The notes below the pieces were generated by a model. It was not told the DNA's origin, searched no databases, and was given only the letters and a program-made list of their open reading frames with translations. Below are positions 3,001-39,777 of a DNA stretch of 64,000 bases, piece after piece. The stretch's first letter is position 1; each line of letters starts with the position of its first letter. This stretch comes from an uncultured Candidatus Saccharibacteria bacterium. GTDB lineage: Bacteria > Patescibacteriota > WWE3 > UBA101185 > UBA10185. The position numbers and the translations under genes were made by a program. The stretch lies in contig CAYLVW010000001.1 of the NCBI GenBank assembly GCA_964387275.1, positions 5,514 to 69,513 of the forward strand, written 5' to 3'.

Positions 3001-5563
3001 CTACTGTCTCATATACGGCATTTGCCCAGCTTGAGTTAACAGCATCTCCTCCTACTCTTGTCCAAGATGAGCCATTCCACCTCCACACTTCTGCGTCACC
3101 CGCTGAAGCACCAAGACCTGCATACAATTGATTATTATAAAAAGCAAGTGAGTAGACTGCCTCAAAGTTAGTAGTCCACCCGGAATTTAAACTATCCCCG
3201 CCAATCTTAGTCCAGGCAGTGCCATTCCATCTCCATACCTCTGCATCATTTGCAGAATTACCAAGGCCTGCATATAGATATGTGCCATCGGAGGCTAGGG
3301 CATAGACACCTTCAAAGTTAGTAGTCCATCCGGAGTTTAGGCTATCTCCTCCAAATTGAGTCCAGGAAGTGCCATTAAATCTCCACGTTTCTGCATCATT
3401 TGCGGTTATACCAAGACCTGCAATCAGTTGATTATCATATTGACCCAAAGCCAGTACGTTTTCGTATGTGTTAAAGGCCCAACTTGAATTAACACCTTGT
3501 CCTCCTACTATGTTCCATGTTGATCCATTAAAATCCCATACTTGAGCACTTCCAGCTACACTAATACCAGTTCCGACATATAAACTCTCACTTAGAACCT
3601 CTGCTGTTTCTATTGTTTGTCTGTTGTAGTAACCCCAGCTACTATTAATGTACTGACCTCCGATTCTGGTCCAAGTAGTACCATTAAAGCTCCAGAAATC
3701 AGATCCTTGGTTGGTTGAAGTTTGTCCGGCGTACAGTGTGCTTGAGTTATATGTTAGTGCACTGATAATTGTGTGAGTATTTGTAAACCCGGAATTTAAA
3801 GCATCTCCACCAATCTTAGTCCAGGCAGTGCCATTCCATCCCCATACTTCGTTATCTCCAGCGGTGGCGCCAAGTCCCACATACAGATTTGATCCATCGT
3901 TCGTCATTGAATAGACGTACTCATATGTAGAAGCAGCCCACCCGGAGTTTAATGCATCTCCTCCTATTTGTGACCATGAAGTACCATTCCATCTCCAAAC
4001 ATCTCCATCCCCTGCGGTATCTCCTGTACCTGCATAGAGATTTCCTCCGTAGTAACTAAGAGACCACACTCTTTCAATGTTGCTGCCGGCTGCCCAGCTT
4101 GAATTAACACCATCTCCTCCTATTCTTGTCCAGGTAGTGCCATTCCATCTCCATACCTCTGCATCCTGAGCAGTAAGCCCCAAGCCAGCATAAAGGTTTG
4201 TTCCATCATTTACTAGAGCGTGAACAATTTCAAAGTTAGTAGTCCAGCCGGAGTTTAGGCTATCTCCTCCAATCTTAGTCCATGATGTGCCATTCCATCT
4301 CCATACCTCCGCATCGTTTGCAGAATTACCAAGACCTGCATATAAATTGCCTCCATAGTAATCAAGTGAGTAGACACCCTCCATTGCTAGTACTGCTGTC
4401 CAGCTGGAGTTAACACCGTCTCCACCAATTTTAGTCCATGCAGCGCCGTCCCATCTCCATACCTCCGCATCACCTGCAGTAAGACCTAATCCTACATAGA
4501 CATTAGTGCCATCATTTGCAAGTGCCAAAACCTGCTCGTATTGTTGTGCTGTCCAGCTATCATTTACTCCATCACCTCCAACTTTTGTCCAGGTTCCCCC
4601 CGACCATTGCCATACTTCTGCATCACTGACGGCATTACCAAGGCCTACAAAGACACTTGTTCCCATTGACGTGCTGGCAGACACCGAAAGTTGGCCGTTT
4701 AAATCCCAGCTGTTATTAATTTCGCTCCCTGCTACTTGTGACCACGTGGTTGCTGCAGAATCCTCTAGCTCGTATGTCAACTTTCCTGTCAAATGATTAA
4801 AGTAAAGTTTATATCCTCCTTTGTCCACTATCGCCATATCTCTATCATTTGAAGTTGCGTTAAAGGTAGATGTTAATTTTATCCAAGCTTCTATAGTATT
4901 TTCTGCAACAATATCTAATACAGATGAATCTGCTGCATATCCATAAGAAATTTGACCATCAAAGGAGCCTGCATTATTAAAATTGCCAGAAGAATAAGTA
5001 ATATTTGAATTAGTTAGTGTGTTTGCATTGCCCGAGCTGTCTGAAGCATTCCCAGAGCTTTCATCAAAGTGATATAGCGCTACTGTATCTGCATCTGTTT
5101 CGTAATTTCGAACTTTTAGCCTTGCAGTATTACCCAAAACCTCTATTAAACTTGAGTCTGATACTGTGTAATCTCCAGATGCTGAAAAATCCCAAGTGTT
5201 TGTTAGTTCTCCCGCAGCTTTTACTCTTTGCAGGATGTTTGTTGTGGCAAAGAAAATTCCAATACATATGCCCAAAGTCAGGATAAAAGCTGTTGAAGCT
5301 TTTACCTGCCATCTTGCTAGAGTTACCTTTTTGTCACCATTTTCTTTTACTATTTTTATAGCCTCATAAGTTTTTTCTAAAAACGCAATTAAGCCATTTT
5401 TAAAAAAACTTACTATGCCTGCACGTCTGGTTGCTATAGTTGTTACTTTTTTCTTTTTAAAAATACTGAAAAAATTTACTCGCAGAAAAGGCAAACCGCT
5501 TATATGTCGTCGGGTTTTAGACCTTCTATTAAACTGTCTTATATCATTTTTCAGATCTATCAT
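1..5563 (-). CDS. Giant secreted/surface protein, 5' part (start ATG at 5563, continues beyond window start). It has an N-terminal TM/signal, a LamG/concanavalin-like domain, about 13 tandem ~51-aa Kelch-like beta-propeller repeats (EVWRWNGTSWTKIGGD..NSSW...LYAGLG), a second LamG-like domain and multiple FN3-like domains.
   Basis: Manual minus-strand translation gave an uninterrupted frame from 5563 down to position 1, preceded by an in-frame TAA 15 codons upstream. Repeat periodicity is clear in the protein. There is a TIEAWIKL-type LamG signature and FN3 motifs (GSGIEGYYVYFGTD, ITWATDRTSDSKIQYG). The plus-strand ORFs in this span are short and mutually exclusive with this frame. Confidence 0.8.
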   Translation of the reverse strand, partial: MIDLKNDIRQFNRRSKTRRHISGLPFLRVNFFSIFKKKKVTTIATRRAGIVSFFKNGLIAFLEKTYEAIKIVKENGDKKVTLARWQVKASTAFILTLGICIGIFFATTNILQRVKAAGELTNTWDFSASGDYTVSDSSLIEVLGNTARLKVRNYETDADTVALYHFDESSGNASDSSGNANTLTNSNITYSSGNFNNAGSFDGQISYGYAADSSVLDIVAENTIEAWIKLTSTFNATSNDRDMAIVDKGGYKLYFNHLTGKLTYELEDSAATTWSQVAGSEINNSWDLNGQLSVSASTSMGTSVFVGLGNAVSDAEVWQWSGGTWTKVGGDGVNDSWTAQQYEQVLALANDGTNVYVGLGLTAGDAEVWRWDGAAWTKIGGDGVNSSWTAVLAMEGVYSLDYYGGNLYAGLGNSANDAEVWRWNGTSWTKIGGDSLNSGWTTNFEIVHALVNDGTNLYAGLGLTAQDAEVWRWNGTTWTRIGGDGVNSSWAAGSNIERVWSLSYYGGNLYAGTGDTAGDGDVWRWNGTSWSQIGGDALNSGWAASTYEYVYSMTNDGSNLYVGLGATAGDNEVWGWNGTAWTKIGGDALNSGFTNTHTIISALTYNSSTLYAGQTSTNQGSDFWSFNGTTWTRIGGQYINSSWGYYNRQTIETAEVLSESLYVGTGISVAGSAQVWDFNGSTWNIVGGQGVNSSWAFNTYENVLALGQYDNQLIAGLGITANDAETWRFNGTSWTQFGGDSLNSGWTTNFEGVYALASDGTYLYAGLGNSANDAEVWRWNGTAWTKIGGDSLNSGWTTNFEAVYSLAFYNNQLYAGLGASAGDAEVWRWNGSSWTRVGGDAVNSSWANAVYETVEALAPIGDKLYAGLGNSSDDAEVWEYNGSTWTLIGGDDVNSSWPAGEMERIRSIAEYNGDMYVTTGSAAGDGEVWRYDFTTWTKVAGDDLNNSWASNTAEHATFVTTYKGKLYTGTGDSGNVDANVWSYGNNAVLESATNSFNTDWRHVAATYNGTAMKIYINGVEDATTSATRSIPTNTLQLRVGTSHGAVDSGLPLSYLAGQIDELRISDTARSTFITTPYTSDPQTVRPNSAVFTSGVLQWDSLASSETANGGSLNYRLSSDGGTTWQYWNGSAWTTSSALTEVNPIATITANVSSFDVTTDGFMWQAVLDGDGTQQATLNSVTLVGSEDATAPNPPSSLTALDQSGGSVSLTTDTWYNYATPYFSWSGATDPGGSGIEGYYVYFGTDNTATPSTAGTFQVGTTFTPSSMTSNSTYYLRIQARDNAQNVSSIYAPFNYQYDGTAPTNPSSLTALPPGYTATNSYTFYWTNDATDTSGSGVAGYQYSINGTSSWSSTIAVGTTQTTLTDIANEGPNTLYMRTIDNTGNVTSTYKQVNFYFAGTAPTEPQNLIVTPSTNTANAFAFDWDAPSSYTGMPDSSTLTYCYTVNTLPSASTCTFTAEGISALSSGPYANQPGSNTLYVAAMDEVDNINYDAYASVTFTANTSSPGVPLNVEIADVSVKETESWKLALSWEPPTTGSSNITYEIYHSTDDSSYTFAAEVSGIAHIDTNLAQATHYYKVRACDTTNNCGIFTTAVSAYPDGRYTTAAELTSGPTVSAITTKQATITWATDRTSDSKIQYGKGSGDFFDEEPSNSDQLTDHTITLTNLSPGTRYYFQAKWTDEDGNTGTSEETTFETAPAPTVTDPKAIAVNLTTATIRYTVEGATKIRIYYGETQTFGSTLEVSTSTSEATYNTILEDLKDGTKYFYKINGFDSEAAEYEGSTLTFETLPRPKISEVKIQQVRGTAQPTVLISWKTNTETSSIVTYYPSSDPSQTRDEVNVEFVLGDHKILIRGL

Positions 5564-8949: not shown

Positions 8950-9249
8950 TTTTAGACCAAACTTTACAAGTCTTTGCAGTTTCCTAGTGAAAGGAAGTTG
9001 GAGAAGGCACGTGCTTTAGCGCGTGGAGTCTCATTAAAATGCCTGTTATAACCTGCAGCTAGGTAACTTGGCACAATCAGTATGCCCGCAGACTTAGAGA
9101 TACAGGGTGCGAGAGCTACATATAGTTTCCAGAAACAAAAAACACCCGTACCGGGCTTTATACTATTTTTTGGGTGAAAAGCGTCTGCATCTCCTTAGTT
9201 TTCACGTCTATATATTATACATTAGTGGGGAAGTTTTGTTTATTTTTAG

Positions 9250-10711: not shown

Positions 10712-12223
10712 TTGAAGATATTGATTAATATTATGGGTATTTTCCGTAAAACAAACATTCAAACAATTGTTCAAAGTGCTACCTCCGAGATAGGTAGGGG
10801 GTATTTAGTGGATGGTAAAAGATACATAACTCATACTGGTCTTCACCACAAAGAGAGTGCTTTATATAGTATGACTTCTTGGCAGAAATTATTAATCATA
10901 TTAATGGTCATATTTATTTTGTTAATGTTGGTTACTAATTTTCATACTTCATTAGTCGCACTAAATGCTGCATTAGCTACTTTATATTTCACAGATTTAT
11001 TGTTTAACTTATTCCTTATCTATAGATCCTTTTCCAGTAGCCCAGAAATTAGGGTTAGTGATACTGAGATATCAAGCCAAACTAACTGGCCAAAATATAC
11101 AGTGTTTTGCCCGTTATATAAGGAAGCGGAGATAATACCGCAGTTTGTAGAGGCGATGTCGCGTATGGATTATCCAAAAGATAGGCTACAAGTTTTGTTA
11201 TTACTCGAAGAAGATGATAAAGCCACAATACAAGCAGCTTATAATATGAATTTACCTACATATGTTGAAGTTGTCGTAATTCCACATTCACTGCCAAAAA
11301 CAAAACCAAAAGCACTTAATTATGGTATGGGTTATGCTACTGGAGATATTATTGTTATTTATGATGCCGAGGATATCCCAGAACCATTGCAGCTAAAGAA
11401 AGCAGTTCTAGCGTTTGCAAAGTCCTCAGAAAATACAGTTTGTATACAGGCTAAACTCAATTTCTATAATCCATACCAAAATTTATTAACTAAGATGTTT
11501 ACTTCTGAGTATTCTTTATGGTTTGATTTAGTTCTGACAGGTCTTCAGTCTATTGATGCTCCAATCCCCTTAGGTGGAACCTCAAATCATTTTTTGACCA
11601 AATATATTAAGGTGCTTCGAGGTTGGGACCCTTTCAACGTGACTGAGGATTGTGATCTTGGGATTAGATTAGTAAAGAAAGGATATAGAACCGCAATATT
11701 AGATTCCACAACCTATGAAGAAGCAAATAGCGACTACATAAATTGGTTTTGGCAACGAACACGCTGGATCAAGGGTTACATCCAAACTTATTTCGTTCAT
11801 ATGAGGGATCCAAAGTCTCTTTGGGCAGGTATTCGAAATCCTCACATACTGACTTTTCAGTTAGTTGTTGGCGGTAAGGTATTATCAATGTTTATTAATC
11901 CCCTAATGTGGATCACAACCATTTCCTATTTTGTTTTTAAACCTTTAGTAGGTGATACAATAGAGTCTTTTTTTCCTGCACCTGTTTTTTACTTATCTAT
12001 CTTCTCCCTGATATTTGGTAATTTCTTATACATGTACTATTACATGATTGGGTGTGCAAAACGAGGATACGATGAGCTGTTAATTTATACTGTGCTCGTA
12101 CCATTCTATTGGTTAGCAATGAGTTTTGCTGCTGTTGTAGCCGTTTGGAGATACATTGTCGCTCCGCATCACTGGTCTAAAACTAAGCATGGGTTACATT
12201 TAAGGACTACCAATTCAATATGA
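10712..12223 (+). CDS. Membrane glycosyltransferase family 2, processive type (QxxRW)
   Basis: GT2 core with DAED (..GDIIVIYDAEDIP..) and a Q-R-T-R-W motif (WFWQRTRWIKG). TM helices lie at the N- and C-terminus. Its stop overlaps the next gene's start (ATGA). Confidence 0.8.
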   Translation: MKILINIMGIFRKTNIQTIVQSATSEIGRGYLVDGKRYITHTGLHHKESALYSMTSWQKLLIILMVIFILLMLVTNFHTSLVALNAALATLYFTDLLFNLFLIYRSFSSSPEIRVSDTEISSQTNWPKYTVFCPLYKEAEIIPQFVEAMSRMDYPKDRLQVLLLLEEDDKATIQAAYNMNLPTYVEVVVIPHSLPKTKPKALNYGMGYATGDIIVIYDAEDIPEPLQLKKAVLAFAKSSENTVCIQAKLNFYNPYQNLLTKMFTSEYSLWFDLVLTGLQSIDAPIPLGGTSNHFLTKYIKVLRGWDPFNVTEDCDLGIRLVKKGYRTAILDSTTYEEANSDYINWFWQRTRWIKGYIQTYFVHMRDPKSLWAGIRNPHILTFQLVVGGKVLSMFINPLMWITTISYFVFKPLVGDTIESFFPAPVFYLSIFSLIFGNFLYMYYYMIGCAKRGYDELLIYTVLVPFYWLAMSFAAVVAVWRYIVAPHHWSKTKHGLHLRTTNSI

Positions 12224-13704
12224 ACTATAAAACTATTACAACATTTATTATAGTTTTTATTCTTTATGTACTTCTGAGTAGGGGATTTATCGGCGTAACC
12301 TCCTACGGTAGTTTTGATGACATTACAGACCCAGTATTAAGGAGTTCTTTTGAGAGTTCTCAGGAACGCGCTCGGTACTCTCAGATGTTGAGTTTTGTAA
12401 CTCAAGGAAAGCTTTCAATAGATGATGTTAAAGATTTTGCAAAACCTGATCTAGCTTGGATTAATAATCACTATTACCCAGCATACCCACCTGGATTATC
12501 TATTTTATTGTCCCCATTTTTTGCCATTGGCCATTTGCTTAATGCTCCTATGGTATTTGTTAATCTAGCAAACGCACTCCTAACCTTACTAACAGGTTAC
12601 TTATTATATAGAGTAAGTAAGCGCATAGGCTTTAGCTACGATGAGTCTTTACTTATTGGAGTTATATATACTGCTAGTACTTTGGTGCTTTCCTATGGTA
12701 CTACTTTATATCAGCATACGCTCTCGGGGTTACTACTATTTGTGATTCTGTATCTGCATCTGGTAAATTCTAATGCGTCAAGTTCTTGGTTTCTACTCCT
12801 ATTACAGGGATTATTAGTTTCGGCAGCCTACCTGGTCGACTACCCTAATATAGTACCCGCGCTTGTGATATTTATTGCAACCTGTATTACTAAACTGCAT
12901 TACTCTGAAGATGCTGTTAAGTTATATATTACTGTTAGATCCAATTTACTTTGGTTATTTTTGGGACTATTGGTTGGATTTATACTAATTGGCCTAATAA
13001 ACTATTCTCTGTTTGGGCAAGCATTCATATTGACTAATAGGTACAATCTCAGGGTACTAGACCTCCATAACATAACTTATACCTACGAATCACTTAACTC
13101 TAGTATGTTTAGTGAAGTTGTCTATGCAGAAAAATTTAATATTCACAATCTTTTCAGAGGAATACACATATTACTTTTTTCAGTGGATAGAGGTCTATTT
13201 ATTTATACCCCGATTTTGCTGTTACTTGCTTTTACTATTAAAAGATTTGGTAATCCTAATTTGAGAAATTTATTATTGCTTACATTTTTTAGCAATCTAC
13301 TACTCTATTCAATGTATGACGATCCCTGGGGTGGTTGGGCTTTTGGACCAAGGTATTTAATACCCACACTTCCCATGCTTGTTTTGCTATTAGCACCATT
13401 ATTACGAGTGGGTATACCAAAAAAGGTGCTGTATTTATTTATTCTTCCATTTATGTCTATTATTCCTTTACTTGGTGCTACTACTAGCAATTTAGTTCCC
13501 CCAAGCATAGAACAGAATTTGACTATACCAAGTAGTTTCCTGACTAACATTGAGTACCTAAGGTCTGGGTACACTGGATCCTTTGTGTTTAACCACTTAT
13601 TTCGAGATTACATGAGTTTGACCTGGTATTTTCTTCTAGTGTTATCTTTCCCATTTATACTTTATGTGTTGTTATACTTCTTTCAAAGAAAGCACACCCC
13701 ATAA
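12220..13704 (+). CDS. Polytopic membrane protein, probable GT-C fold glycosyltransferase (ArnT/PMT-like)
   Basis: More than 10 predicted TM helices and an N-terminal loop with a YPPGLS motif typical of GT-C transferases. It is translationally coupled to the GT2 gene. Confidence 0.5.
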   Translation: MNYKTITTFIIVFILYVLLSRGFIGVTSYGSFDDITDPVLRSSFESSQERARYSQMLSFVTQGKLSIDDVKDFAKPDLAWINNHYYPAYPPGLSILLSPFFAIGHLLNAPMVFVNLANALLTLLTGYLLYRVSKRIGFSYDESLLIGVIYTASTLVLSYGTTLYQHTLSGLLLFVILYLHLVNSNASSSWFLLLLQGLLVSAAYLVDYPNIVPALVIFIATCITKLHYSEDAVKLYITVRSNLLWLFLGLLVGFILIGLINYSLFGQAFILTNRYNLRVLDLHNITYTYESLNSSMFSEVVYAEKFNIHNLFRGIHILLFSVDRGLFIYTPILLLLAFTIKRFGNPNLRNLLLLTFFSNLLLYSMYDDPWGGWAFGPRYLIPTLPMLVLLLAPLLRVGIPKKVLYLFILPFMSIIPLLGATTSNLVPPSIEQNLTIPSSFLTNIEYLRSGYTGSFVFNHLFRDYMSLTWYFLLVLSFPFILYVLLYFFQRKHTP

Positions 13705-35161: not shown

Positions 35162-35719
35162 TTATGCGTCAGGATTTTTTGTTGTTTGTAATTCTCTTAT
35201 TGATTGTCTTGGAAAATTTTTTATTAAATACCTTCCAGGATTTTCTCCCATATCTATATGATCATCAATAACCTCTAACAACCTTGAAGATGACGTTTTA
35301 CCAAAAGATATTACTTCACTTCTTACACCTTGGCTTTTTGCGTACTCAATAACATCTCTATAATCCCCATCTCCTGAAACTAGCACCATAGCATCGATTT
35401 TTGGAAGTAATCTTACAATATCCATACATATACCTACATCCCAATCCCCTTTTTTTGCACCACCTAAAAATACCTGCAAATCTTTCATTCTAACTTCAAA
35501 TCCAATTTTTTCTAAAGCTGTAAAAAAATCTTTTTCATTTCCTATATCTGCATTTATAACATAAGCAAAAGCCCTGACTAATTTTCTTCCTCCCACTGCG
35601 TCTGTCAGCACTTTGCTGAAATCAACCTTGGCTCCATACAAATTTTTGGCCGAGTAATACATGTTTTGGATATCTACAAAAACCCCAACGCGCTGTTCTT
35701 TATGTCTTATATTTTTCAT
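35162..35719 (-). CDS. NYN/LabA-like PIN-type nuclease domain protein
   Basis: VFVDIQN...VLVSGDGDY motif arrangement. Confidence 0.7.
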   Translation of the reverse strand: MKNIRHKEQRVGVFVDIQNMYYSAKNLYGAKVDFSKVLTDAVGGRKLVRAFAYVINADIGNEKDFFTALEKIGFEVRMKDLQVFLGGAKKGDWDVGICMDIVRLLPKIDAMVLVSGDGDYRDVIEYAKSQGVRSEVISFGKTSSSRLLEVIDDHIDMGENPGRYLIKNFPRQSIRELQTTKNPDA

Positions 35720-35843
35720 ATATTGATTCTATCAACAAAATCAATAACACAATAGGCATTTACTCAAATCACTACAGGTTATATCTATTCTTGTTAGGCT
35801 TGTGTGGGGTTGTGTTTTTTTTGAATTGATATATTATCCTACT

Positions 35844-36107
35844 ATGTCAATTCTGGATAAGTTAAAAAATCTATTTGCATCTAAATTCCAACCAACATCT
35901 ACTGTGGTGGATATGCACGAATGTTCTTGTTGTAATGGGTGTTGCTCAGAAGATCAAGAAAAATCTTGCAACTGCGAAAACGAATGTCAATGCGATCAAA
36001 ATTCTGAAAACAACAAAGACAACGATTCCTGCGAATGCGGTGGCAACTGTGGGTGTTCTACTTCTTCCGACAGCAATGAGTGTGCATGTGGGCACTGTGG
36101 TAAATAA
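35844..36107 (+). CDS. Cys-rich metallothionein-like small protein (87 aa, 17 Cys plus His)
   Basis: CSCCNGCCSEDQEKSCNCENECQCDQ...CECGGNCGCSTSSDSNECACGHCGK. Starts at internal ATG 35844; the longer ORF from 35802 has no better support. Confidence 0.55.
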   Translation: MSILDKLKNLFASKFQPTSTVVDMHECSCCNGCCSEDQEKSCNCENECQCDQNSENNKDNDSCECGGNCGCSTSSDSNECACGHCGK

Positions 36108-36337: not shown

Positions 36338-36411
36338 TGGGGAGTCGTCTAATGGTAGGACATTGCACTCTGGATGCAAGAATTGAGGTTCGAATCCTTG
36401 CTCCCCAGCCA
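36338..36411 (+). tRNA. tRNA-Gln (anticodon CTG), CCA encoded
   Basis: Manual cloverleaf: acceptor TGGGGAG/CTCCCCA, anticodon stem TTGCA/TGCAA with loop CTCTGGA, T-loop TTCGAAT. Confidence 0.85.
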
Positions 36412-36533
36412 TGAAGAACTTAAGATACATAGATCCAGGTACCTATATAGATATGATATTCAATATGGGTAGTTGAAAATCAATATTATAAGTGCTATAA
36501 GGTTATTAAAGATACTCTTAGATAAAAAAGCAT

Positions 36534-37148
36534 ATGACCGAATATCCATACATGGTGTCTAATACTAAAATAGGACCTATTTTTGAAAAGCTTAAAAGTG
36601 CAGAAGTCCCACAGAGGTTTACCCTCGATATATTAAGAAAACTTGGCTTTACAAGTACTAATGATCGAGCATTCATTCCATTAATTAAGAAAATGGGGTT
36701 CTTAACAGCAGATGGAACACCAACATCTCATTATAACCAATTAAGGGATATATCTCAGTTTAAAGTTGTTTTGGCTGAACGAATTAAAGAAACATACTCG
36801 GATTTATTCTCAATTAATACACGTATGGATAAGGCTTCCGACGCTGAAATAAAAGGCGCTATATCAAGAGTTACTGGGAAGGATGCCGAAAATGTAAATA
36901 GATACTTCGCCACTTTTAAAGCTTTGCTGTCACTAGCTGATTTTGATACAAAAAATATGCCAGTTGCAGTTATTAAAAGTGACATTGAAACTTACCGAGA
37001 ACACGAAAACGAGATTAAAACACCTGTAGTCAATCAAGAATTAGTAACATTTCACTATAATATTCAAATTCACCTTCCACTTACCACAGATATTAATATC
37101 TATAATGCAATATTCAAAAGTATAAAAGACAACCTATTAGATAAATGA
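36534..37148 (+). CDS. Hypothetical protein (204 aa), upstream partner of the HEPN protein
   Basis: Its stop overlaps the next gene's start by 4 nt (ATGA). No catalytic motif was recognised. Confidence 0.5.
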   Translation: MTEYPYMVSNTKIGPIFEKLKSAEVPQRFTLDILRKLGFTSTNDRAFIPLIKKMGFLTADGTPTSHYNQLRDISQFKVVLAERIKETYSDLFSINTRMDKASDAEIKGAISRVTGKDAENVNRYFATFKALLSLADFDTKNMPVAVIKSDIETYREHENEIKTPVVNQELVTFHYNIQIHLPLTTDINIYNAIFKSIKDNLLDK

Positions 37149-37723
37149 GGACTATTAAGCATTTAAAAAAACTAGTCTTGGATGGAATGCTAGTACAATC
37201 CGTAGTTGACAAATATACTACTGAAGGTACATTGAGAAAGAATACAGGTATACAAAAACCATCCATTTCCTTAGAAGAATTCTCTTTTAGCCCAAAAATT
37301 ACTGCTACAGCCAACAAAATGTCCGAAGTATATATTGCATTTTATTGTTTCGAGAATCTTGTAAGGGATCTAATAATTGATCGATTGTCTGAACGCCATG
37401 GGAATGAGTGGTGGAAAAATTGTGTACCTGAGAAAGTTAAACTTCGGGTGGAAGATCTAAAAAGTAAAGAAAGCAAAAACAAATATTTATCGCCTAGAGC
37501 AAGTACTAATATAGGGTATACAATGTTAGGTGACTTGGCCTCTATCATTATAACTAGATGGGATGATTTCTCAGACATTTTACCAAATCAAGCTTGGGTA
37601 ACCTCCCGACTGAACGATTTAGAAATGTCTCGTAATATCATTATGCACTCTGGTATTTTACCTGATGATGAGATTGATAGAATTAAAACATCTCTAAGAG
37701 ATTGGGTAGAGCAGGTTGGTTAA
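37145..37723 (+). CDS. HEPN-domain protein (Rx4H motif; tentatively Swt1-like HEPN), putative RNase toxin/effector
   Basis: C-terminal ...SRNIIMHSG... gives R-x4-H. Predicted all-alpha, about 190 aa, translationally coupled to the upstream gene. Confidence 0.55.
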   Translation: MRTIKHLKKLVLDGMLVQSVVDKYTTEGTLRKNTGIQKPSISLEEFSFSPKITATANKMSEVYIAFYCFENLVRDLIIDRLSERHGNEWWKNCVPEKVKLRVEDLKSKESKNKYLSPRASTNIGYTMLGDLASIIITRWDDFSDILPNQAWVTSRLNDLEMSRNIIMHSGILPDDEIDRIKTSLRDWVEQVG

Positions 37724-37820
37724 GTGTAAGCAGTTCTTAATCATGCATGTAGTGATGTTTGTGCTAAGAGCACTCACTTATCTTGCTCTCCAGCCATGAA
37801 GAACTTAGTTTATACTTATT

Positions 37821-38363
37821 GTGAAGATGATAAAAATAAAAACTAAACCTCTATTGCTTCTCCTTATACTACTTATCACTTTAATAACCGGAGTACTTTA
37901 TTTGGAGTATTCGTATCAGAACTGCAAAAAACAAATTGCTAGTACATTTTTAAAAAGTAATAGCGGAGTCAGTTGCTATGAGCTTAGTAAACTTGTTGAG
38001 AAAGAGAAGTTTGCTGTTTCTGATTCATATCCAAATATCTACGAAGTAGAGAGGCGTTTAATTGGTTTGAATAATGGTATTACTTGCAGTAGGGTTGGGT
38101 ATGTTGCCTCAGATTTACCTAAATATGCAAAAGAGTACGTTATTTTGCACGAGTATCTTCATACACAGGGAAACTATTCTGAAACATCTGTGAACTTTCA
38201 GTCTGGTATTGAGAAACCTCTAGGTTTACTACAGACTGTGTGGATTTCTGTGAGCCCCAATTTCTCAAAAGATTTTTTTAACGTCTGTTCTATAGGGCGT
38301 TTGTGGAAAGTGTTTAAAGTTTATTTCATGTTTGATAGTTTTGAAGACCTCGCTAAGATATAA
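37821..38363 (+). CDS. Small secreted protein with an HExxH motif (putative Zn-metallopeptidase-like)
   Basis: Signal peptide and ILHEYLHTQG. Confidence 0.4.
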   Translation: MKMIKIKTKPLLLLLILLITLITGVLYLEYSYQNCKKQIASTFLKSNSGVSCYELSKLVEKEKFAVSDSYPNIYEVERRLIGLNNGITCSRVGYVASDLPKYAKEYVILHEYLHTQGNYSETSVNFQSGIEKPLGLLQTVWISVSPNFSKDFFNVCSIGRLWKVFKVYFMFDSFEDLAKI

Positions 38364-38526: not shown

Positions 38527-39777
38527 ATGTCCAAATATATTAGTGGTGGTTTTGAAGGCTTTTTAACCAATGAAACCCCGTATCAATTCATAGAGCAGCC
38601 AAAACGGGAAGTATTGTATCTTACATCTGATTTTTTAACCTCTATAAATCGTAACCACCACTTCAAAGTTTCCTCGGAGGGCGTATCAGGGCATTTAGAA
38701 GCAGCTTTGGAGAATGGTAATTTGAGTGATTTGGTAACTGCTACCACACAGTTAGTAAATAAAGTATTAGAGGAATCTCTAACCGGTGATCCGATCACAT
38801 CGTTAGTATTTCTTGATAAATCGGCTAGAAATGGAGCATTTCTTTTTTACACTATGTGGGATGGTTTACAGCAGCGGGGAGAAATACCCCAAGGAGTCGC
38901 TCGTCCAGATATAAGATATATGAACGTTGGGAGATTTCATGATGAGAAGCATTCTTCTCAAGGACCCGTTGCCCTATTTAAAGATCAGTTTACCTTAATT
39001 CCCGAGGGAATGTCTCCCCATGTGTTAGTGGTAGATGAGTATATAGAATCTGGTGGTACTGCACGACGAGCACAGAAATTGTTGATGGATGCTTTTGGTA
39101 TCAAAGCTGACGCTATTTCCATGTTTTCTACTGTACCTATATGGTATGGTACTTCCGATATCGGGTTGTTGGGGGTTAAAGATCCTAAACATGAAGATTT
39201 CTGGAGCACAACGGAACTGGGGAAGTCGTTAAGTGGGTTACCTGCAAAGACATTATTGTCAGCTAAGCATATATTGGACAGATTCGATGGTACTGGGTTT
39301 GAGGAGATTTTTGGAACAGTCTACATAAAGGATAAGGTAGAAAGGAGCAGTGTCGATGATATTCGCAAGGCTTTAGAAGACAAGGGTTTAGACGTAGCTG
39401 TAGAAGACATTTTAGAGCTTCTGTCTATAGCACACACTGAGGGTATGGGAATAGTTAATATATATGAATTAGTTCAGTATTTAGAATCAGCTGGTGGTTA
39501 CTTTGCTGTTCCTACCAGTAGCGAATATGATAGGCAAAATTTTATTGCCTACAGGACAATTTTAAAAAGTATCATTCAGTCCTATTTGATTTTTAGAGAT
39601 ATTGATAGAGCTGATCCCGAAAGAACTACTGTATTGAGTGATAGTTATTCGAAATCTAGGCAAGGAAGCGTGTATCAGTCCACTAGGGATAGGGAGGATG
39701 ACACGAGACCTAGTGGGTATATATCGCAAGATAATAGTAATGCTTTAGAATATCATAAATCCAAAATGCACCCTTAG
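38527..39777 (+). CDS. Phosphoribosyltransferase (PRTase)-domain protein with N- and C-terminal extensions of unknown function
   Basis: PRPP-binding signature VLVVDEYIESGGTARRA (hydrophobic-D-E/D-x-x-x-S/T-G-x-T). Locally GC-richer. Confidence 0.55.
   Translation: MSKYISGGFEGFLTNETPYQFIEQPKREVLYLTSDFLTSINRNHHFKVSSEGVSGHLEAALENGNLSDLVTATTQLVNKVLEESLTGDPITSLVFLDKSARNGAFLFYTMWDGLQQRGEIPQGVARPDIRYMNVGRFHDEKHSSQGPVALFKDQFTLIPEGMSPHVLVVDEYIESGGTARRAQKLLMDAFGIKADAISMFSTVPIWYGTSDIGLLGVKDPKHEDFWSTTELGKSLSGLPAKTLLSAKHILDRFDGTGFEEIFGTVYIKDKVERSSVDDIRKALEDKGLDVAVEDILELLSIAHTEGMGIVNIYELVQYLESAGGYFAVPTSSEYDRQNFIAYRTILKSIIQSYLIFRDIDRADPERTTVLSDSYSKSRQGSVYQSTRDREDDTRPSGYISQDNSNALEYHKSKMHP

Follow-up and report, generated by a model that had tools for sequence, protein, structure and literature searches.

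The locus described here lies in a 64-kb stretch of DNA (64,000 nucleotides; hereafter the window, whose positions serve as coordinates throughout) from an uncultured Candidatus Saccharibacteria bacterium. It comprises a tRNA-Gln(CTG) gene whose 3' end recurs, nearly unchanged, 1.4 kb downstream, and two genes enclosed by this repeat, designated A and B, that encode a DUF5343 protein and a HEPN protein. We view the segment, with moderate confidence, as an integrase-less mini-island of 1.36 kb that resembles a cis-mobilizable element (CIME), is seated at the 3' end of tRNA-Gln(CTG), and carries as its cargo PDC-M34, a candidate phage defence system of the PADLOC database that may work as a toxin-antitoxin (TA) or abortive-infection module. 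The features of the locus are as follows.

36338..36411, + strand: tRNA-Gln(CTG), intact, with encoded CCA (ARAGORN); putative integration target
36397..36422, no strand assigned: left direct repeat (attL-like), the last 15 nt of the tRNA plus 11 nt downstream
36423..36533, + strand: left non-coding arm, from the repeat to gene A, 111 nt
36534..37148, + strand: gene A, 204 aa, DUF5343 / PDC-M34A
37050..37145, + strand: near-invariant C-terminal tail of protein A, residues 173-204; putative docking or neutralising peptide
37145..37723, + strand: gene B, 192 aa, Swt1/Abi2-clade HEPN / PDC-M34B, predicted RNase effector; start codon overlapping the stop codon of gene A (ATGA)
37622..37648, + strand: HEPN catalytic motif E160-M-S-R163-N164-I-I-M-H168
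37724..37781, + strand: right non-coding arm, from the stop of gene B to the right repeat, 58 nt
37782..37807, no strand assigned: right direct repeat (attR-like), a fragment of the tRNA 3' end that differs by a single C-to-T exchange in the acceptor-stem portion

The tRNA gene, which is also recovered by the Rfam tRNA model RF00005 (58.8 bits at 36338-36408), shares with the far end of the segment the 26-nt repeat CTTGCTCCCCAGCCATGAAGAACTTA, the two copies of which are identical at 25 of 26 positions and start 1385 nt apart. A search of the 64 kb that tolerated up to three mismatches returned these two copies only, and the repeat occurred in none of 100 dinucleotide-preserving shuffles, so that none is expected by chance. 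The left copy begins in the 3' strand of the T-stem and runs through the 3' strand of the acceptor stem, the discriminator and the CCA end into 11 nt of flanking DNA; in the right copy, similarity to the tRNA ends abruptly at the upstream edge, which gives the segment a sharp boundary. The 3' end of a tRNA gene is a usual crossover region of tRNA-integrating elements, and the attL/attR-like geometry that a first, sequence-only reading of this DNA had described is borne out in all of its coordinates. We infer that the repeat was made by a recombinase. An uninterrupted attB site, reconstructed as the junction ...GGTTCGAATCCTTGCTC[C/T]CCAGCCATGAAGAACTTAGTTTATACTTATTG, would join tRNA-Gln to the flank GTTTATACTT..., and the corresponding circular attP junction would read ...GCACTCACTTATCTTGCTC[C/T]CCAGCCATGAAGAACTTAAGATACATAGATCC.

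The 1359 nt between the repeat copies hold genes A and B as their only substantial open reading frames (ORFs), with gene A starting 123 nt after the end of tRNA-Gln at 36411. No integrase lies between the repeats, just as had been claimed at the outset: neither ORF is one, and the DUF5343 and HEPN genes leave no room for another. A recombinase was equally absent when every ORF of at least 100 aa between 29.7 and 44.3 kb was scanned singly, an interval covering approximately 7 kb on each side. A Pfam scan of all 62 ORFs of the window yielded no integrase among the 25 best-populated families (27 weaker families were found besides), and a crude motif search, together with a query by the serine recombinase of a related locus (L034, see below), detected neither a serine recombinase nor a convincing tyrosine-recombinase motif across the window. 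Terminal inverted repeats are likewise lacking in the window, and no promoter or terminator signal at the site stands above background. An independently assembled contig of the Logan assemblies (L004), which possibly stems from the same sample, is 100% identical to the window over 13.4 kb spanning the site, and its comparison with the window consequently revealed no polymorphism.

The DUF5343/HEPN gene pair

Gene B belongs to the Pfam family HEPN_Swt1 (PF18731; E 5e-14, 53 bits against a cut-off of 27.5), with residues 65-192 covering positions 2-115 of the 115 positions of the profile; over its entire length, residues 1-192, it aligns to positions 1-191 of 192 of the PADLOC model for PDC-M34B (PDLC04592; E 1.1e-65). 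The guess that the second gene encodes a HEPN_Swt1 protein was proved right by the profile search, and the motif SRNIIMH (R-x4-H) is present. Within the Rx4-6H motif, R163 is encoded at 37631-37633 and H168 at 37646-37648, and E160, R163, N164 and H168 are invariant in 24 homologs. The structural model of protein B displays the all-alpha HEPN fold and is closest to AbiF. We regard protein B as a predicted HEPN endoribonuclease of the Swt1/Abi2 clade.

Its partner, protein A, is a member of the Pfam family DUF5343 (E 3.9e-47) and matches the PADLOC model for PDC-M34A (PDLC04589; E 1.8e-67) with residues 3-201 on profile positions 4-207 of 208. Three parts can be distinguished. The N-terminal domain (residues 1-137) is well conserved and was modelled as a winged-helix type; the linker that follows (residues ~146-172) is disordered in the model and hypervariable among homologs; and the C-terminal tail, with the peptide FHYNIQIHLPxTTDIxxYNAIFKS, is nearly invariant, residues F173, H174, Y175, I177-P182, Y190, N191 and I193-S196 being the same in all 32 homologs. 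As modelled, protein A is a winged-helix nucleic-acid-binding protein that holds an invariant C-terminal peptide on a flexible tether. Relatives of solved structure were detected neither for protein A nor for protein B in a profile search against the PDB, and NCBIfam holds no named family for either protein.

Genes A and B adjoin each other on the + strand with a 4-nt overlap, which is the gene arrangement of PDC-M34, and the ATGA overlap at 37145-37148 confirms the translational coupling proposed in the sequence-only reading. Two small, co-directional and translationally coupled genes also correspond to the layout of a type II TA system. The PDC systems are 145 as yet untested 'phage defence candidates' that were collected by a guilt-by-embedding approach from genes found within BREX, DISARM and type I restriction-modification (R-M) loci (Payne et al., bioRxiv 10.1101/2024.01.29.577857). 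The initial thought that this module might match no described family was mistaken: judged from both profiles, the cassette is the catalogued, uncharacterised candidate system PDC-M34 and not a new system.

The pair is widespread and held together with great constancy. In protein searches, B is represented by 84 and A by 1663 cluster representatives. In a set of 185,579 GTDB species representatives, with one genome for each species, relatives of B are encoded on 330 stretches, which span many bacterial phyla and one archaeon; in JGI metagenomes, at least 487 stretches encode such a relative. We fetched 80 cassette loci from the GTDB species representatives and considered 64 metagenome loci with enough upstream sequence; a DUF5343 gene is placed directly upstream of B in all 80 of the former and in 63 of the latter. 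The context of the pair differs in each lineage examined. Among the immediate neighbors of the 80 cassettes, genes of restriction and defence are over-represented (Vsr, GmrSD_N, AAA_21, type I R-M subunits, DNA methylases, HNH). Among 50,697 phage records protein A found no match, and among 72,556 plasmid records it found a single partial one that covers 30% of the query.

Two observations made on these loci deserve mention in their own right. Further HEPN-type genes share repeat-bounded islands with the pair at L055:10555-11154 and L077:8221-9003, one encoding an MtlR-like HEPN protein with the motif RNEFGH and the other a RiboL-PSP-HEPN protein with RNLVAH. On the chromosome of an Alkalispirochaeta metagenome-assembled genome (MAG; L005:5383-14883), the pair lies between two inverted copies of IS21 (rve + IstB), in an interval that also holds DUF4062, an IS110 transposase and a patatin gene and that resembles a composite transposon with defence-type cargo.

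Probable insertion at tRNA and other gene ends

No close relative of this organism exists that would offer an empty site for comparison; insertion is therefore judged by the behavior of the cassette family elsewhere. A tRNA gene is present within 1.5 kb of 13 of the 80 cassettes, compared with 4.5% of control positions displaced within these loci (p 6e-5). Of 18 loci with an adjacent tRNA, 16 have its 3' end turned toward the cassette (p 7e-4). Six of the nine patescibacterial loci, the window included, are tRNA-adjacent, and three of these are found at tRNA-Gln, namely the window, the Shapirobacteria locus L012 and the Zambryskibacteria locus L034. In the Shapirobacteria loci L001, L002 and L012, the pair follows 166 nt after tRNA-Gln(TTG). 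In L034, the gene for a large serine recombinase of 486 aa (Resolvase, Recombinase, Zn_ribbon_recom) is located 9 nt after the pair, and 16 nt separate its end from the 3' terminus of a tRNA-Gln(CTG).

Duplicated gene ends bracket the cassette in several loci of other phyla. The last 55 nt of guaA (GMP_synt_C, E 3e-45) are recopied 21 nt after the HEPN stop in L027, and the last 54 nt of gyrB are recopied 31 nt after the HEPN stop in L081, where they appear once more 1.9 kb further on, before the alanine racemase gene. Around the cassette of L055, 17 nt of a tRNA-Leu 3' end are duplicated, and around those of L085 and L087, approximately 200 nt of an aldo-keto reductase gene; the metagenome set adds the duplicated-end cases L120, L152 and L167. 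Collectively, our analysis favours a site-specific insertion at the tRNA end of the window, a conclusion that says nothing on the present mobility of this particular copy.

Several observations weigh against a mini-island with a defence cargo, and we gather them here. Strong flanking repeats (E<1e-6) are found at 9 of the 80 cassettes and also at 5 of 114 displaced controls under a uniform test, which is a modest enrichment; as two of the nine are dispersed repeats (see below), this statistic is weak when taken by itself. Composition gives no hint of a foreign origin: the insert does not differ in GC content (0.32-0.36) from the DNA around it and shows no GC or skew anomaly. The loci of the three distant relatives of a 416-aa protein encoded downstream of the right repeat are not syntenic with the window, and no empty site was found among them. 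Viral and metagenome contigs gave no match to the exact att pattern CTCYCCAGCCATGAAGAACTTA, nor was an excised circle or attP-bearing element found there. The left and right non-coding arms cannot be aligned among the five closest cassettes, and none of the three cassettes most closely related to that of the window (L092-L094) adjoins a tRNA. A search of the paper library for DUF5343 or PDC-M34 gave no hit, and RNase activity, toxicity and phage defence are predictions for the family as a whole.

Some of the related loci show peculiarities of their own. Of the nine cassettes with strong flanking repeats, L026 and L036 were rejected as bearers of att sites, since many scattered copies of these repeats occur in the two loci. 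In the Candidatus Zambryskibacteria MAG (JACPAD010000001.1; L034:9042-12124), a perfect 84-nt inverted repeat (9042-9125 and 11959-12042) brackets the pair and the recombinase gene; its right arm runs over the 3' terminus of the recombinase gene and stops 10 nt short of the tRNA-Gln(CTG) 3' end. The arrangement might represent a unit that inverts or moves, or else an artefact of assembly. The Acidobacteriota MAG with the duplicated gyrB end (L081:9164-12569) contains the third copy of this end at 12544-12569 and thus a tandem att array with two small segments, both devoid of a recombinase. In three Candidatus Shapirobacteria MAGs (L001:5884-9235, L002, L003), tRNA-Gln(TTG) and the cassette are located between RtcB (RNA 3'-phosphate/5'-OH ligase) and the gene of a LigT-like 2H phosphoesterase. 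Both enzymes serve RNA repair and might process what HEPN cleavage leaves behind. In L003, the divergence of the left flank begins precisely at the tRNA 3' end, of which a degenerate copy is kept; the right flank is 100% identical. A direct repeat of 130 nt (L084:1791-1920 and 4279-4408) surrounds a pseudogenised cassette; within it, a T arm, an acceptor strand and CCA resembling those of a tRNA can be made out (GGTCGACGGTTCGAACCCGTCCAGGTCCACCA), but ARAGORN and Rfam recognized no complete tRNA or tmRNA in it.

As to the genes in the vicinity of the segment in the window, an NYN-domain protein of 185 aa (PF01936, E 5e-31; 35162-35719, - strand), predicted to be of an RNase type, is encoded approximately 620 nt upstream of tRNA-Gln and adjoins a VanW-domain gene. 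Just upstream of the tRNA follows a small, very Cys-rich ORF (35802-36107, + strand; likely start near 35845) with the pattern CSCCNGCC...CNCENECQC...CECGGNCGC...CACGHCGK, which is metallothionein-like in composition and has no Pfam match. The genes directly downstream of the right repeat (37821-38363 and 38527-39777, both + strand) belong to no Pfam or NCBIfam family. The 416-aa downstream protein has three relatives only among approximately 15 billion proteins, all of them at no more than 35% identity, and one of these carries the JGI label hypoxanthine phosphoribosyltransferase.

A model for the putative mini-island and its rivals

The data lend themselves to the following model. Site-specific recombination at the end of the tRNA gene would have made the 26-bp att-type duplication, and the recombinase that belonged to the element would since have disappeared. 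Genes A and B would be co-translated from a single transcript, and protein A would keep the HEPN protein B inactive via its C-terminal peptide. Infection, or the loss of A, would then free the RNase, which might cut cellular or phage RNA and thereby arrest the cell in the manner of a TA or abortive-infection system. We propose this design because of the order of the genes, their ATGA coupling, a putative nucleic-acid-binding partner with a tethered peptide, and a HEPN protein that appears catalytically intact; given these sequence features, a TA or abortive-infection reading of the pair is reasonable. The invariance of a peptide that sits behind a hypervariable linker indicates that the tail of A probably controls or neutralises the RNase. 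An anti-phage function is likewise a prediction. As regards its origin, the segment may have been left behind by the decay of an L034-like element, or it may be a cassette that was moved in trans.

A competing explanation that retains a real, if minor, chance holds that the pair is a plain addiction-type TA module or an RNA-metabolism pair without any role in phage defence. Its loss would kill the cell, and the pair would for this reason outlive the island that had brought it. The small, overlapping and co-directional genes with the putative DNA-binding partner in first place are in keeping with such a module, as is the fact that the closest solved relatives include HEPN-MNT toxins and AbiF; the position of the Shapirobacteria pair between RtcB and the LigT-like gene would suit RNA metabolism, and defence activity of the family is a prediction only. 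However, it is the occurrence of family members inside BREX, DISARM or type I R-M loci that brought the family into PADLOC, the neighbors of the cassettes are enriched for restriction and defence genes, and additional HEPN genes occur in the same islands (L055, L077). Moreover, TA and abortive-infection roles can coexist.

We hold it to be improbable that the segment is an active non-autonomous mini-element, that is, a 1.4-kb circle that excises and integrates with the help of a recombinase from elsewhere in the genome or from a helper element. Both att copies are nearly intact (25/26), and in other phyla the two-gene unit, with little else, is located between duplicated ends of guaA, gyrB and aldo-keto reductase genes, the right copy often starting only 18-60 nt past the HEPN stop; the tandem array without integrase in L081 and the combination of cassette and serine recombinase at tRNA-Gln(CTG) in L034 would likewise agree with activity. 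Yet no recombinase was found in the 64-kb window, the viral and metagenome collections lack the att sequence, plasmid (72,556) and phage (50,697) records are practically devoid of the cassette, the arms of the cassettes share no conserved cis-sequence, and repeats are enriched over the controls by a factor of only ~2.5. In addition, decay of larger islands gives the same pattern (CIME concept; PMC5704250). Slightly less probable still is the broader proposition that PDC-M34 pairs are recombinase-less mobile defence cassettes that are trafficked in trans between ordinary att sites across phyla, with the copy in the window intact and still mobile in a genome of Patescibacteria-like type. If true, this would amount to an integron-cassette-like movement via tRNA 3' ends, guaA, gyrB and other gene ends.

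That no insertion took place, and that the 26-nt repeat reflects a local duplication (e.g., by slippage or by repair around the tRNA end) next to a gene pair ancestral at this position, strikes us as unlikely. The lack of a compositional anomaly and of a known empty site, and the strong repeats at 5 of the 114 displaced control positions, would be compatible with it. The repeat, however, starts in the T arm and spans the tRNA 3' end and its flank, which is the canonical crossover region of integrases; the cassette family occurs in unrelated contexts in each lineage examined; and cassettes are enriched at tRNA 3' ends and are bracketed elsewhere by duplicated ends of guaA and gyrB. Least plausible by far is a functional link to tRNA-Gln, with the HEPN RNase acting on this tRNA or the operon being co-transcribed with and processed from it: three patescibacterial loci are indeed at tRNA-Gln (window, L012, L034) and the stretch from the tRNA to gene A shows no conspicuous promoter-like site, but the tRNA of L034 is on the opposite strand and past the recombinase gene, other cassettes are found beside Pro, Glu, Leu, Ser, Met, Val or Asn tRNAs or beside none, and the right-hand tRNA fragment is explained by recombination only.

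The integrase-less mini-island with a PDC-M34 cargo, to which we return as the preferred reading, provides a clean and minimal natural example of a widespread, uncharacterised HEPN module. It also offers handles for experiments, namely the invariant residues E160, R163, N164 and H168 of the HEPN protein, and a winged-helix partner with a tethered invariant peptide. The recurrence of the pair between duplicated ends without a recombinase suggests that very small defence cargo may persist at integrase sites, and perhaps move between them; such persistence would bear on the question how reduced genomes gain immunity.

Comparison with known systems

With tRNA-targeting islands, the segment shares its location at a tRNA 3' end and direct repeats that include this end; it has no integrase of its own. 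CIMEs are decayed integrative elements that kept attL and attR and lost their integration genes (PMC5704250). The segment in the window agrees with this description in that its attL-like and attR-like ends are retained and integration and transfer genes are gone, and the likeness extends to direct repeats of the target end on both sides, to the absence of a recombinase inside, and to the tandem att array of the related locus L081. CIMEs are defined by descent from a known integrative and conjugative or integrative and mobilizable element and by shown mobilisation in cis, whereas the element in the window is CIME-like in its geometry. To our knowledge, it is, at 1.36 kb, far smaller than the CIMEs described so far. 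An integrase-bearing element with the att sequence of the window was not found in viral or metagenome contigs; L034, at another tRNA-Gln(CTG), is a possible analogue.

The tycheposon islands of Prochlorococcus provide a further point of reference. Their integration at tRNA 3' ends leaves partial tRNAs behind, and repeated integrations have left degenerate remnants in these streamlined genomes, with defence genes among the cargo (bioRxiv 10.1101/2020.12.28.424599). In contrast to the element in the window, tycheposons carry a tyrosine recombinase of their own, and we found no sequence or gene content shared between the two.

For protein B, the closest solved relatives include AbiF (PDB 8vz6) and the HEPN toxins of HEPN-MNT systems (7ae2, 5yep), from which it differs by an extra N-terminal helix and linker and by a sequence similarity that a profile search against the PDB does not detect. 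The three also differ in their partners: AbiF in 8vz6 binds a non-coding RNA, HEPN-MNT systems employ an MNT nucleotidyltransferase, and B is accompanied by a DUF5343 winged-helix protein. The closest, albeit weak, match to the winged-helix fold of the protein A model is BrxA (DUF1819) of BREX (PDB 7zge, 3bhw); sequence profiles do not place protein A in the BrxA/DUF1819 family.

With regard to the PDC-M34 reference, finally, there is no structural difference, as the order, strand and adjacency of the two genes are the same. What sets the copy in the window apart is its setting: it stands alone at a tRNA site, within a genome that is small and low in GC, whereas the reference is embedded in BREX, DISARM or type I R-M loci. 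The locus is thus one more instance, in minimal form, both of a candidate system already on record and of the well-known type of island at tRNA genes.

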